35,890 nucleotides of DNA from Rhodospirillales bacterium (GCA_043740535.1 JAYUCA010000095.1:1-35890); one strand, 5' to 3'. Counted from the stretch's first letter, positions 8,551 through 12,276 are shown. Translations and numbers: made by a program. The notes: generated from the letters alone by a model not told the origin.

Positions 8551-11500
8551 CTACGCGCCGCCGCAGGACGCCACGCTGTCCGGCATGTTCCACGCCTTGC
8601 CGTTGACCCAGTCCGCCTCCTTCATGGCGACGAGCCCGGTCCCGTCATGGTTGACCTGATAGAGCTTGACGGGCCCGCCCATCGGGCTGGCGAGCATGGT
8701 GAACATGATCCGGTGGTCGCTGTCGCCCCAGTTGGTGTCCGCGAACACCAGGCCCGCCGGCTCCTGGCCGCGGATCGCCGCACGGATCGCCTTCTTGTCG
8801 ATCCCGGTCACCCCGGCGCCCGTCAGCGCGCCCTCCAGCACGCTGCTCAGCCCGGCCATGTCGGCCTGCAGGTTCGGCAGGTCGGTGGATGAAAGGCCGC
8901 TCACCATGCCGTCCATCTCGCCGATCACGCTGCGCCGCACGGCCGTCTTCTGTTCATCGGTCAGCGGCAGGTGATCGAGGGCTGCCAGCATCTGGTCCTG
9001 CATCGCGTCGCGGCCTTTGGCCGGAAGCGTGACCTGCTTGGCGGCCGCGAGGCTCGCGGCCTCGTGCAGGGCATCGACGGTCGCCGCCTTCGGTGCTTTC
9101 AGAATGCCGGTGATCATCGCCGGCAAGTCCCGCACCAGCTTTCCGCCGGTCATCGCCCGGCGCAGGAGGTTCAGGACGGTGGCCGTGTTGGCTCCCAGCT
9201 TCATGTCGCCGACGATATCCTCCAGCAACGCGTCGGTCAGCGGCGTGTCGCCCTGGGCGGTCGCCTTGTCCACCTCGCCCTGCACCACCTCGGCCCCCGT
9301 CTTGCCGCCTTGGCAGGCCGTCTTCATGGACTTCGTGCCGGGCCGCAGGATGAAGGCGTGCGGGCCGCCGCCCATGGGCACCCCGGCGTCATCGGGCTCC
9401 GCGTTCGCCTGATCCTTCACCGAGGGCCACAGCCGCTTCGCCTGGTTCACGACGAAGGCGCCCAGCTCGGTGGAATTGGCCGGCTCGATCCGGTTGATGG
9501 TCGGCGGATCCTGCTCGAAATAGACCGGCAGCAGGTTTTCCGAGAAATTCCCACGCGCGACGGTCCAGGGATTGGGCACGGAGGTCGGCGTCGCATCCAG
9601 CCCGCGCCGTGTATAGTCCTCGAGCTGCGCCTGGTTCGACGCGTCGCGGAATGCGTCGGTCCCGGCCTTGGCGGCGACCTCCTCGGCCATCTTGCGGGCG
9701 AGCTTCTGCATCTCGGGGTTCGGATCGTCGCCGTACTCCTGCATCCAGGCGTCCAGCAGCAGCCCGGCGACCACCTGGCCGAAGCTTTTCTGGTCCTTGA
9801 TCTGCGTCGGCTGGTCCGGCAGCGTCTTGTCCAGCAGCGTGAAGCCGCCGCGGCCGGAGTTGCCGTCGCCCGACGTGCTCGCATGCACGATGGAGGCGTC
9901 GTATTCGAGGCTGATCCGCTCATTGAACAGCGTCTTGAAGGCGCCGGACAGCTTGGTGGCGATCTCGTCGGACTTGCCCAGCGCCGCCACCTCGTCTTTG
10001 ACCTGCTTGGAACGGGAGCCGATGGGCTGCTTCTCCAGCTCCAGCTTGCGGGTCTTGGCCCTGGTCGATTCCTGCCCCAGCGCGTCGCCCAGCGCCTTGC
10101 TCGGCCCGGCCTTGACGCTGCTGTCGTGCCGCTTCGCCACGCCCTGCTCGGCCATGCCGGCGACCATGTATTCCCACGATCGGAGCAGCCGGTTGTCGTT
10201 GCTGCCCAGATAGGCGTCCTCCGCCGACTTGCTGGTCTGCTGCATGCCGACGATCTTGCTCAGGCGGTTGTCGACGGGCTTGCCCTTCTCGTCGCGCGCG
10301 CCGGTCAGCTTTTCCGACAGCCGCATGTACTCCTCGTTCAGTGTCTTGAATTCCGGCGTGAAACCGTCGCTGCCCTTGTTCGAAGGGTCGGTCCGCGTGT
10401 CCTCCTGCTGCGCCACCCGCCACTTCTTGGCGACGTCCTGCATCTGCGCATACAGCCGCATGTCGCTCTCGTTCACGCCGGCCTGGTTCATGGCGAGCTG
10501 GCGGATCAGCGTGTCCGGGGTGATGTCCATCTCCGTCGGCGCCGGGGCGTTGGCGGCGTTCAGCGCCGCCGTGCCGGCCCCGCCGGACAGCGCCGGGAAC
10601 TGGTCGATCGCCGCCTGGATGGCGTCCGGCAGCGGCGTGCCTTTGCCCAGCGCGGTCTGGATGGCTTCCACGACGGCGGTCCGCTGCTCGGGCGTCAGCG
10701 TCGATGGCAGGGCGGCCAGCGCGCGGTCCAGCGCCTGGGACTTGCCGATGGCGGCCAGCGCCTCGGGGATCGCTTCGGCGGGCAGGCCCAGCGCGGTCAG
10801 GGCCGCCTGCACCGGCGGCGCGTCGGCGAGCAGGGCGGGCGGGGTGAGCGGCTTGCCATCGACCTGGCTCATCGTGCCGTCGGGCGCTGTCTTCATCTTG
10901 CGCGTTTCGAGCTCCGCGCGGCTCATCTGCTGCGGAACCTCCATCGCGATCGGGCCCAGGCCCGGCACGTCGCGCGTGACCTTGCCGGTCTCGATCATCT
11001 CCTTCAGATCGTCCAGCATCTTCCCGGGCTGGCGGTTGTGGATGTGAATGGCGACGCTGGTGCCGAAGCAGGACCCGACGTCGTTCTGCCGCAACTCGGA
11101 CGCCATGGCCGCCAGCGCCGCCTGGCGCGCGTGCACCTCCGTCACCTCGACGTCGGGCGCCAGGCCGAGGGTGGCGCGGATAAGCCCCGTGGCGGGATTG
11201 TCGGGCTTGGGCTTGCCGATGGACTCCAGCTTGCCGCGCAGCAGGGGGTCGTCCTCGAGCAGCTTCAGCGTTTTCAGCAGGTGCTTGCCCTGCGGCGTGC
11301 CGGTGACGTTGCCGGTCTTCAGCTCGCCCGACACCTTCTGCATCAGGTTCTGGCCGCCCTCGGTGGTCATCACCGTGCCGTCGGGCCCGATCAGCCGGGT
11401 CGCGACCTGGCGCGACTGCAGCACGTTGCGGCCGTTGCCGGGGTTGCCGAGGCCGGTGCGGCGGTTGGCGTCGTAGATCTCCGACGGCGACACAGCCAGT

Positions 11501-12276
11501 TCACCACGGGGCGGTTCCACTCTCGGCGGCGTGCCGGACGACACGGCGCCCGAGCGCTGGCGGCCCATGACCGGGCCCGTCGGGGTGGTCTGGCCTGGCG
11601 TCGTGGACGGCGCCGCACGGGTCCAGCCGCCGCCTTGGCCGCCTCCCTGGCCGTCTCCCGGTGTCGTCGGCGGCTGCAGGGCATGCGTCAGCTCGCCCAA
11701 CAGCGTGCGGGCCTGCACCAGGTCGCCGCCCTTGAGCGCCTCGCTCGCCGCGCCGGCCAGCTTGACCGCGCCGCCGCGCCGCTGGTCGCCACCGTCGAGC
11801 GCCTTGATCCGCCCAGCGAGCGCGACAAGCGCCTGGTGCAGCAGCGTGCCGTCGTCCTGAACGGGCGCCGGCGTTTCTTCCTCGCTGTCCGCCTCCAGGG
11901 ATTCGTCGATGTGGAACTCGACCTTGTTGAAACCGGCCTTCTTGAGGTGCTCCAGCAGCTTGGGACGCAGGGCGCCCGGCGGCTCCTTGTTGATCGTGAA
12001 CAGGATCAGCGCCGGTTCCGTGTCGCTGTCGATGCTGGCGTGGCCGAAGCGCAGCAGGGGCGTGTCGAGGTTCAGCTTGATCTTGGCGGCCTGCTTCTTG
12101 AGGTCTGCCAGCACCCGCTTCGGCTTGGCCAGCTTGTTCAGCAGCAGGACGCCGCTCTTTTCCTTCGTGATGCCCAACGCGCAGCTCACCGGCTCATGCT
12201 TCGAGAGCGCCAGCAGCGGCCGGAGCGAGGAGACGGGCATGATGTCGTCCTGGCCTGCGGTGCGCGTATCGCTCAT
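8551..12276 (-). CDS. Large orphan protein (1,241 aa), function unknown; possible clan-CA-like cysteine hydrolase
   Basis: Start chosen at ATG 12276-12274 (MSDTRTAGQDD...), preceded by GGGAGA. The 176-codon upstream extension in the track runs through the intergenic repeats and then antisense into the Uma2 gene, and is rejected. Host-like GC3 throughout. No signal peptide. Motifs: LRQNDVGSCFGTS (Cys codon 11068-11070), GGGPHAFILRPG (His codon 9358-9360), FADTNWGD (Asn-Trp 8728-8733). Confidence 0.8.
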   Translation of the reverse strand: MSDTRTAGQDDIMPVSSLRPLLALSKHEPVSCALGITKEKSGVLLLNKLAKPKRVLADLKKQAAKIKLNLDTPLLRFGHASIDSDTEPALILFTINKEPPGALRPKLLEHLKKAGFNKVEFHIDESLEADSEEETPAPVQDDGTLLHQALVALAGRIKALDGGDQRRGGAVKLAGAASEALKGGDLVQARTLLGELTHALQPPTTPGDGQGGGQGGGWTRAAPSTTPGQTTPTGPVMGRQRSGAVSSGTPPRVEPPRGELAVSPSEIYDANRRTGLGNPGNGRNVLQSRQVATRLIGPDGTVMTTEGGQNLMQKVSGELKTGNVTGTPQGKHLLKTLKLLEDDPLLRGKLESIGKPKPDNPATGLIRATLGLAPDVEVTEVHARQAALAAMASELRQNDVGSCFGTSVAIHIHNRQPGKMLDDLKEMIETGKVTRDVPGLGPIAMEVPQQMSRAELETRKMKTAPDGTMSQVDGKPLTPPALLADAPPVQAALTALGLPAEAIPEALAAIGKSQALDRALAALPSTLTPEQRTAVVEAIQTALGKGTPLPDAIQAAIDQFPALSGGAGTAALNAANAPAPTEMDITPDTLIRQLAMNQAGVNESDMRLYAQMQDVAKKWRVAQQEDTRTDPSNKGSDGFTPEFKTLNEEYMRLSEKLTGARDEKGKPVDNRLSKIVGMQQTSKSAEDAYLGSNDNRLLRSWEYMVAGMAEQGVAKRHDSSVKAGPSKALGDALGQESTRAKTRKLELEKQPIGSRSKQVKDEVAALGKSDEIATKLSGAFKTLFNERISLEYDASIVHASTSGDGNSGRGGFTLLDKTLPDQPTQIKDQKSFGQVVAGLLLDAWMQEYGDDPNPEMQKLARKMAEEVAAKAGTDAFRDASNQAQLEDYTRRGLDATPTSVPNPWTVARGNFSENLLPVYFEQDPPTINRIEPANSTELGAFVVNQAKRLWPSVKDQANAEPDDAGVPMGGGPHAFILRPGTKSMKTACQGGKTGAEVVQGEVDKATAQGDTPLTDALLEDIVGDMKLGANTATVLNLLRRAMTGGKLVRDLPAMITGILKAPKAATVDALHEAASLAAAKQVTLPAKGRDAMQDQMLAALDHLPLTDEQKTAVRRSVIGEMDGMVSGLSSTDLPNLQADMAGLSSVLEGALTGAGVTGIDKKAIRAAIRGQEPAGLVFADTNWGDSDHRIMFTMLASPMGGPVKLYQVNHDGTGLVAMKEADWVNGKAWNMPDSVASCGGA

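Follow-up and report, generated by a model that had tools for sequence, protein, structure and literature searches.

A large, unannotated bacterial protein family with an invariant Cys and His and a candidate papain-like catalytic core

Papain-like proteins (SCOP d.3, MEROPS clan CA) share a core in which a helix with an N-terminal Cys packs against an antiparallel sheet of 4-3-2-1-5 strand topology, with the His on beta2, a polar residue on beta3 and an oxyanion-hole Gln or Asn a few residues before the Cys (PMC10318531). Their catalytic residues are often tens to hundreds of residues apart, and insertions often defeat automated structure comparison (PMC10318531). Here we describe a 1,241-residue protein encoded on the minus strand at positions 8551-12276 of a 35,890-nt stretch of DNA from a Rhodospirillales bacterium (GCA_043740535.1 JAYUCA010000095.1:1-35890), hereafter the window. 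An earlier note, made by reading the sequence alone, had singled out this gene as an orphan with a split Gln-Cys ... His ... Asn-Trp signature reminiscent of papain and calpain. We find that the protein belongs to a large, entirely unannotated bacterial family. We propose, with a probability of roughly 0.68, that this soluble protein carries a C-terminal domain of about 980 residues that acts as a thiol-dependent hydrolase on a papain-like catalytic core.

When 5.8 billion proteins were searched through a word index, only four matches came back, one of which was a 97% identical strain variant. Profile re-searches of the same index added a few, giving 4-7 relatives overall and suggesting an orphan. 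An exhaustive phmmer (HMMER) scan of 1.84 billion cluster representatives (50%-cluster level), queried with residues 261-1241, overturned that label, retrieving 706 relatives at E<=1e-3, 367 at E<=1e-10 and 39 at E<=1e-30. With at least 706 relatives at this cluster level, the protein can be called an orphan only as regards curated families, none of which matches it. Orphan calls from word-indexed searches alone are unreliable for long, fast-evolving proteins.

None of these relatives appears to have been described. The window protein had no match in Pfam, NCBIfam, PADLOC or PDB sequences, and a meaningful Pfam or NCBIfam domain was found in none of the 25 family members scanned. Seven members remained without a Pfam match at E<=1, and PDB sequences were matched neither by the single protein nor by two family profiles. 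Source records give the members no name beyond "hypothetical protein", our literature searches found no description of the family, and the profile searches returned no characterised non-hydrolase family. Clustering separated the clade of the window protein (n=29; long variable N-termini, an N-terminal module and Gly-Gly tails) from two large clades of proteins of about 970 residues with low- or mid-GC-type composition and from several smaller clades.

The five residues named in the earlier note were conserved throughout this family. In a first alignment of four sequences (33-35% identity), the three most conserved blocks, RQxDVGSCFGT, HAF..PG and AD[TS]NWG, were those that hold them. Among 40 diverse members with 17-34% identity to the window protein, the only invariant columns were G300, Q397, C403, H973, N1182 and W1183. 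All five pre-named residues thus lie within six invariant columns of 981, for which the chance probability is ~8e-13. We then counted conserved residues over non-gap sequences in a MAFFT alignment of 154 family representatives. Q397 and C403 were each retained in 148/148, H973 in 149/150, N1182 in 146/150 and W1183 in 141/150. Four further residues were highly conserved, namely R396 (144/148), E702 (143/149), D1180 (142/149) and D793 (132/149). Most clades have the Gln at -6 from the Cys; in a single clade of 30 members it is at -5. Position +1 from the His holds Ala in 109 of 150 sequences and one of Ala, Thr, Val, Gly or Ser in 141 of 150, with Phe at +2 (F975, 129/150). Apart from G300, the invariant set consists of polar, catalytic-type residues and not of structural Gly, Pro or hydrophobic ones.

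Each of the three motifs is short, and both Foldseek and Pfam are silent on the protein, as might be the case if the motifs had come together by chance in a non-enzymatic helical protein. Set against this are the position of the pre-named residues within so few invariant columns and a pattern kept in 154 sequences. The conservation data effectively refute coincidence.

We modelled residues 261-1241 with AlphaFold2. A run with a multiple sequence alignment (MSA) of seven sequences left the C-terminal third at a predicted local distance difference test (pLDDT) score below 50 and was unusable, as was Foldseek on it. The model from a 40-sequence MSA reached a mean pLDDT of 90.7 and a predicted template modelling score (pTM) of 0.89, and no segment fell below 50. 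Its core is mostly helical, as had been anticipated from the sequence. A helix begins at C403, and the invariant Q397 precedes it. H973 opens beta2, the hairpin partner of beta1, and D1180, N1182 and W1183 all lie on beta3, after the helix. The model matches the definition of the papain-like core in the order and type of its elements, which is a match of secondary-structure order and not of geometry.

Two other catalytic arrangements were considered and rejected. A triad of C403, H1188 and N1209-D1211, with a His-Asp spacing of ~21, was attractive in the four-sequence alignment, but H1188 is present in only 58/150 sequences and is lost in homologs P0004 and P0006. An alpha/beta-hydrolase with C403, D793 and H973 in the order nucleophile, acid, His, in which G-x-C-x-G would be the "nucleophile elbow", fails because a helix and not a strand precedes the Cys and because the model contains hairpins and not a parallel sheet.

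The following mechanism would fit a papain-like core. We infer that the catalytic residues, which are spread over 750-800 residues, meet in space. The proposed nucleophile Cys403, which caps its helix N-terminally, would form a thiolate-imidazolium pair with the proposed general base His973, the residue that opens the neighbouring beta-strand. Cys403 would attack the carbonyl of the substrate, which might be a peptide, isopeptide or other amide or ester bond, and the resulting acyl-enzyme would be hydrolysed, with transfer being less likely. The side chain of Gln397 and the backbone NH of Cys403 would stabilise the oxyanion. Asn1182, or Asp1180 on the same strand, would orient His973, and Trp1183 would shield that hydrogen bond. 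A DNRLLRxWE helix, a YDA hairpin and a PW block, together with variable helical repeats, may provide a scaffold for substrate recognition. The N-terminal module of about 110 residues, the acidic patch and the Gly/Pro/Thr linker would be clade-specific accessories for targeting or delivery.

Several results weigh against this proposal. Foldseek found no significant neighbour of the 981-residue model in the PDB (best E=0.41, template modelling score ~0.1). In BFVD, too, nothing was significant; the best hits were helical tape-measure proteins (E=8e-3, score 0.09) and nothing papain-like was matched. Several hundred residues divide the putative core into pieces, and automated comparison often fails on proteins split in this way (PMC10318531). 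We also compared insert-excised profiles from the 154-sequence alignment by hhalign with papain, the calpain-2 core and UCH-L1, using block-order and reversed controls; these three sequences were first verified against the PDB (for papain, E=3.5e-148 to 1khp). One of these comparisons favours the proposal: the Cys block aligned with papain at P=2.4e-4 (reversed control 0.64), pairing Q397 with Q19 and C403 with C25, and the match persisted when the block order was permuted. The His and Asn blocks gave P=0.44-0.96 against papain (0.71 for the two together), with reversed controls of 0.04-0.86; over all three comparison proteins they spanned P=0.1-0.96 and did not improve on the reversed controls. 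All blocks gave P=0.05-0.64 against calpain-2 (reversed controls 0.013-0.31) and 0.11-0.65 against UCH-L1 (0.16-0.49). Pfam returned no clan-CA family at E<=10 for ten insert-excised mini-cores. Finally, Asn and Trp are adjacent in this family, whereas papain has N-S-W and calpain N-P-W. Considering that D1180 is almost equally conserved on the same strand, the partner of the His would be either Asn1182 or Asp1180.

Only the papain Cys block beats its controls, so membership of C1, C2 or C12 is not supported by these profiles. The likeness is one of catalytic signature. The specific kinship to papain or calpain that had been suggested thus shrinks to a Cys block resembling that of papain, and nothing resembles calpain above the controls. 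The broader suggestion of a cysteine-hydrolase signature fared better. It passes the conservation test of the note decisively and fits the secondary-structure order, and Foldseek gave no papain-like match.

A high-confidence model that has no structural neighbour, and His and Asn blocks that have no profile link, would also suit a novel fold whose active site, built by the invariant Cys and His with Asp1180, Glu702 and Asp793, binds a metal or is of some other non-papain kind. The papain likeness would then be convergent or coincidental, and the three conserved acids would be possible ligands. We consider this quite improbable. Gln at -6 or -5 and Asn-Trp are papain-type auxiliary residues and would be atypical metal ligands, and one invariant Cys and one invariant His are too few for a Cys/His metal cluster. 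The papain-like order is reproduced as well, in that the Cys caps a helix N-terminally, the His opens a strand and the polar residue lies on the strand that follows. In addition, insert-rich papain-like proteins often escape automated structure comparison (PMC10318531). A papain-like hydrolase remains our preferred reading, and the family, although new to the curated libraries and the literature searched, would probably belong to the papain-like superfamily with an already familiar chemistry.

The architecture of the family supports a core that tolerates insertion. The core always ends the protein: in 146/155 members the distance from the Asn-Trp motif to the C-terminus is 50-80 residues. Between 123 and 1,056 residues precede the Cys. 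Cys and His are separated by 260-725 residues (median 446) and His and Asn by 47-1,023 (median 143). Length variation is concentrated in two intervals, C403-E702 and H973-N1182. Spacings that vary widely around fixed motifs are what insertion into a core should produce. Near-constant spacing is kept by the E702 helix, the YDA hairpin and the PW block, which we count as conserved elements of the domain, as opposed to inserts. The catalytic domain would need at least about 600 residues. Given the minimum of 260 residues between Cys and His, much of that stretch is conserved, family-specific domain and not the very large insert that had been postulated; a variable helical insert lies between His and Asn. 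The interval between His and Asn is made of variable numbers of helical units of about 40 residues, among which the motif LP.T..EQ[RK]TAV recurs. In the window protein it occurs twice, as the note had said: LPSTLTPEQRTAV at residues 523-535 and LPLTDEQKTAV at 1103-1113, with a two-residue indel between the copies. The coordinates of all features are given in Table 1.

Table 1. Features of the 1,241-residue protein and of its upstream region. Nucleotide positions are counted from the first letter of the window; core numbering is full-length numbering minus 260, with H for helix and E for strand.
Feature	Residues	Position (nt)	Strand	Remarks
Lys-rich N-terminal module, ~110 aa	11-123	11908..12246	-	Hidden Markov model (HMM) from 6 copies
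Acidic patch ESLEADSEEE	125-134	11875..11904	-	Read from sequence
Gly/Pro/Thr low-complexity linker	200-260	11497..11679	-	23% G, 18% P, 15% T
Conserved family core	261-1241	8554..11496	-	One confident AlphaFold2 unit
Cys block IRATLGL...RQxDVGSCFGT	366-436	10969..11181	-	Holds Q397, C403
Q397 codon	397	11086-11088	-	
C403 codon	403	11068-11070	-	
Core helix	403-415 (core H143-155)			C403 first residue; pLDDT 96
Helix block DNRLLRxWEY..MAE	694-712	10141..10197	-	Family-specific, between Cys and His; W701 135/149; holds E702
Beta-hairpin YDA...DG.S.RG.F.L	788-816	9829..9915	-	Conserved; holds D793
PW..G......Y block	900-921	9514..9579	-	Conserved; P903 143/150, G909 144/151
Beta1-beta2 hairpin VPMGG-GP-HAFIL-RPG	966-980	9337..9381	-	Holds H973, F975
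Beta1	core E706-710			Hairpin partner of beta2
Beta2	core E713-717			H973 first residue; pLDDT 95
H973 codon	973	9358-9360	-	
Variable helical insert, His strand to Asn strand	982-1169	8770..9333	-	Contains LPLTDEQKTAV repeat-type helices
Beta3-beta5 LVFADTNWGD / HRIMFTML / KLYQVN	1176-1209	8650..8751	-	D1180, N1182, W1183 on beta3
Beta3	core E916-925			pLDDT 92
D1180 codon	1180	8737-8739	-	
N1182-W1183 codons	1182-1183	8728-8733	-	
Beta4	core E928-935			
Beta5	core E944-949			
C-terminal Gly-Gly-Ala tail (...SCGGA)	1239-1241	8554..8562	-	Read from sequence
Divergent intergenic region, target to first Uma2 gene, 175 bp		12277..12451	.	Carries tandem repeat
22-23-bp tandem repeat GGCGCCAGCGCCGGAGACATC[C]		12345-12411		3 units; ~70-135 bp upstream of target ATG
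Two tandem Uma2-family (PF05685) genes		~12452-13033 and ~13030-13587	+	Both match PADLOC PDC-S03, E ~1e-16 to 1e-18

The region before the core is less constant. The Lys-rich part (11.5% K), the acidic patch and the Gly/Pro/Thr linker are present as the note had described them, and the linker is not conserved among homologs. An HMM built from six seed copies of the N-terminal module retrieved the non-seed homologs P0016 (E=2e-35) and P0172 (7e-8), while Pfam gave no match for the module. It is carried by the window protein and by P0006, P0010, P0016, P0020, P0170 and P0172, and so is restricted to part of the clade of the window protein. In every homolog that has one it lies at the extreme N-terminus, with P0010 having two copies. 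The module might serve delivery, targeting or regulation. At the other end, a GG-x(0-2) C-terminus preceded by an aromatic or aliphatic residue is found in 28/155 family members, mostly in the same clade. This tail resembles ubiquitin-like or double-glycine processing sites. It might serve in autoprocessing or autoinhibition, or have no meaning at all.

Translation of the minus-strand open reading frame (ORF) gave 1,241 residues and a stop, with the codons of the named residues exactly where they had been placed. A product of the same length is called in three close strains. Upstream of 12276 the mechanical ORF continues to a TTG at 12804, but this stretch overlaps the divergent Uma2 gene and does not code for the protein. 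A Shine-Dalgarno-like GGGAGA lies 6 nt 5' of the ATG at 12276. The true start may instead be Met13 (ATG at 12238-12240 on the minus strand), 12 codons downstream. This Met begins "MPVSSL...", is preceded by AGGACGA and lines up with the N-termini of several homologs ("MPLDS", "MPNDA", "MPKKD"). The gene is the largest real one in the window, since ORFs of 1,322 and 1,178 residues are antisense shadow frames of a genome of ~70% GC. Its codon usage is host-like, with a GC content at third codon positions (GC3) of 0.92 against 0.84-0.97 in neighbouring genes. The protein has no signal peptide or transmembrane segment (maximum 19-residue Kyte-Doolittle mean 1.34). Its size rank, its codon usage and the lack of such segments agree with the initial description of the gene.

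The window is a housekeeping segment of a Gram-negative chromosome. On one side of the gene lie SurA, LptD, LptF/G, HolC and an amidase, convergent on it. On the other side are two divergent Uma2 genes, a GMC oxidoreductase, a methyltransferase, an MFS transporter and a two-component system, followed by transketolase, a transaldolase-PGI fusion, 6PGD, G6PD and PGL. The fusion is a 951-residue transaldolase-phosphoglucose isomerase (24915-27770, plus strand) within a pentose-phosphate cluster (tkt, tal-pgi, gnd, zwf, pgl), an arrangement typical of Acetobacteraceae-type Alphaproteobacteria. No secretion-system gene was found in the window.

The position of the gene is syntenic in three near-identical strains. 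The tandem repeat in front of it varies among such strains, with one copy in L015 (~6840-6966), at least two in L017 (10-52), three in the window and about four in L016 (9844-9932). The repeat unit contains a short GGCGC..GCGCC inverted repeat, and the array could be an operator array or a device for expression variation. Uma2 is present as one copy in L015 and as two in L016 and the window, which indicates recent duplication or loss. PADLOC assigned no family to the target and matched only the neighbouring Uma2 proteins, to the candidate defence model PDC-S03. The control region said to be common to the gene and Uma2 does exist as a divergent intergenic region. It is lineage-specific and the link is incidental, because Uma2 was nearby at none of 10 family loci outside the lineage of the window. 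The question raised in the note, whether Uma2 is always adjacent, is thus answered in the negative. Across these 10 loci and the three close-strain loci no partner was shared, and outside this lineage the family gene stands alone among unrelated genes.

The surroundings of other members are diverse. P0169 lies in a chlamydial genome (CT_584-like, UPF0137/pGP6-D, thrS-parA synteny) and P0004 on a Legionella-like contig with a Legionella_OMP neighbour. P0002 is located between type VI secretion system (T6SS) genes for TssK/VasE, a VgrG spike gene and a 1,012-residue PI3/PI4-kinase-like protein. P0003 and P0005 adjoin giant FG-GAP/Calx-beta proteins, and P0010, P0170, P0171 and P0172 have metabolic or regulatory neighbours, as do the copies in two Rhodobacteraceae metagenome-assembled genomes (L007 and L008), which are surrounded by metabolic genes. 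Searches of plasmids (tblastn, megablast) and a scan of viral contigs found no relatives. The contig with P0169 (L009/L010, 569-1407 and 15865-17511) also encodes flagellar rod/FliE and flagellin genes. Their presence beside the chlamydia-specific CT_584-like and pGP6-D genes marks the bacterium that carries P0169 as an environmental, flagellated member of the Chlamydiota. At the P0002 locus (L003/L004, 6609-9647 and 13763-18451), the PI3/PI4-kinase-domain protein is accompanied by a VgrG operon (VgrG and unknown proteins of 209 and 601 residues) next to TssK. These surroundings look like an effector island.

Where the protein acts may be asked from the same data. One possibility is a cytoplasmic housekeeping or regulatory hydrolase that acts on a bacterial protein or metabolite and is vertically inherited in several phyla. 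This would be in keeping with the host-like codon usage, a place on the chromosome that stays fixed beside Lpt, HolC, amidase and pentose-phosphate genes, the ordinary metabolic neighbourhoods, the lack of an export signal and the occurrence of members in Alphaproteobacteria that seem to be free-living. It would also account for a broad distribution that includes reduced chlamydial genomes, where copies of about 970 residues form two large clades. We rate this role below even odds. There is no conserved operon partner to indicate a pathway, and the highly variable N-terminal additions would be unusual in a housekeeping enzyme. The family is also rare by the word index, with 4-7 matches among 5.8 billion sequences, and patchy, with two matches among 185,579 species-representative genomes searched with degenerate patterns tuned to the clade of the window protein.

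A second possibility is that the members are effectors or toxins that cleave or modify eukaryotic or competitor proteins. They would be exported by systems other than Sec, namely type III secretion in Chlamydiota, type IV secretion in Legionellales and T6SS or others in Proteobacteria, and the variable N-termini would serve delivery or targeting. The chlamydial, Legionella-like and T6SS/VgrG-associated members point in this direction. So do the stand-alone, scattered genes without a conserved neighbour and the strain-variable repeat in the promoter region, which resembles contingency-type regulation. A signal-peptide-like N-terminus was seen in 0/154 members and a transmembrane segment in essentially none, while the N-termini differ greatly and the catalytic domain is always C-terminal. 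We rate this role as only slightly less likely than the cytoplasmic one. The window is a housekeeping, alphaproteobacterial-type segment without secretion-system genes, in which the gene has host-like GC3 and stable synteny in three close strains. Other members lie among Rhodobacteraceae metabolic genes, and none is on a plasmid or viral contig. Proximity to a T6SS occurs at the P0002 locus only, where the gene is convergent to the VgrG operon and not part of it. Known delivery domains (PAAR, MIX, Rhs and similar) were absent from all 18 members scanned. In the window and these members we found neither the VgrG, PAAR or adaptor linkage of T6SS cargo effectors nor the MIX, PAAR or Rhs N-terminal domain of specialised ones.

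The two questions of chemistry and export can be joined in a wider proposal, which as a whole we consider unlikely. The family would be a new clan-CA-like or convergently papain-like group of giant cysteine hydrolases, with a minimal catalytic domain of about 600 residues. Eukaryotic or competing cells would be the targets of members exported by Chlamydiota, by Legionella-like bacteria and by some Proteobacteria that bear a T6SS or are free-living. The N-terminal module would serve delivery or targeting, and the Gly-Gly tail would be autoprocessing or autoinhibitory.

If the assignment to a papain-like hydrolase is true, hundreds of unannotated 50%-identity clusters would be added to these enzymes, and MEROPS and Pfam curators would have a new family to define. 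Those who study Chlamydia-like and Legionella-like bacteria would gain an effector candidate with an obvious catalytic-dead mutant (the equivalent of C403A). The architecture is unusual in that catalytic residues far apart in sequence are separated by conserved, family-specific domains, and it is missed by current HMM libraries and by Foldseek.

We finally compared the family with known cysteine hydrolases. Like papain (C1), it has the order Gln...Cys...His...Asn-Trp, a Gln at -6, a Cys within G-S-C-[FW] at the N-terminus of a helix, an "H-A-hydrophobic" motif that opens a strand and a hydrophobic strand that ends in N(x)WG. It differs from papain in that the Cys-to-His distance is 134 residues in papain and 260-725 here. 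The window protein also lacks a signal peptide, a propeptide, a disulfide pattern and any Pfam or Foldseek match. The calpain core (C2) is cytoplasmic, as the family may be, is likewise without a signal peptide, has motifs in the style of Q-x5-C, H-A-Y/F and N-(P)-W-G in the same order, and is a two-lobed core that tolerates accessory domains. Unlike calpain, the family has no Peptidase_C2 match and no Ca-binding, C2-like or EF-hand domains, and its hhalign scores were no better than the reversed ones. In its His block, H-A-F with a small residue at +1, the family resembles both papain (H-A-V) and calpain (H-A-Y).

In most deubiquitinase classes the catalytic His is typically followed at once by an aromatic "gatekeeper" residue (PMC10643670). 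Insert-rich papain-fold deubiquitinases (USP/C19, Legionella Lot-type OTUs, Simkania deubiquitinases) resemble the family in carrying large insertions that separate the Cys helix from the His strand (PMC10318531, PMC10643670). They too are found in Chlamydia-like and Legionella-like bacteria and are soluble without Sec signals. The family differs from them in having no aromatic gatekeeper, no UCH, USP or OTU match in Pfam and no profile similarity to UCH-L1, and it also occurs in apparently free-living Alphaproteobacteria. Papain-like Cys-His-Asp effector proteases and toxins (YopT/AvrPphB C58 and similar) have domains of about 200 residues that Pfam recognises, whereas the domain described here would need about 600 residues or more and is unmatched by Pfam, NCBIfam and PADLOC. 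Common to the family and the C58-type effectors would be the Cys-His-polar order, modularity of the N-terminal regions, genes that stand alone and, putatively for the family, a Sec-independent delivery.

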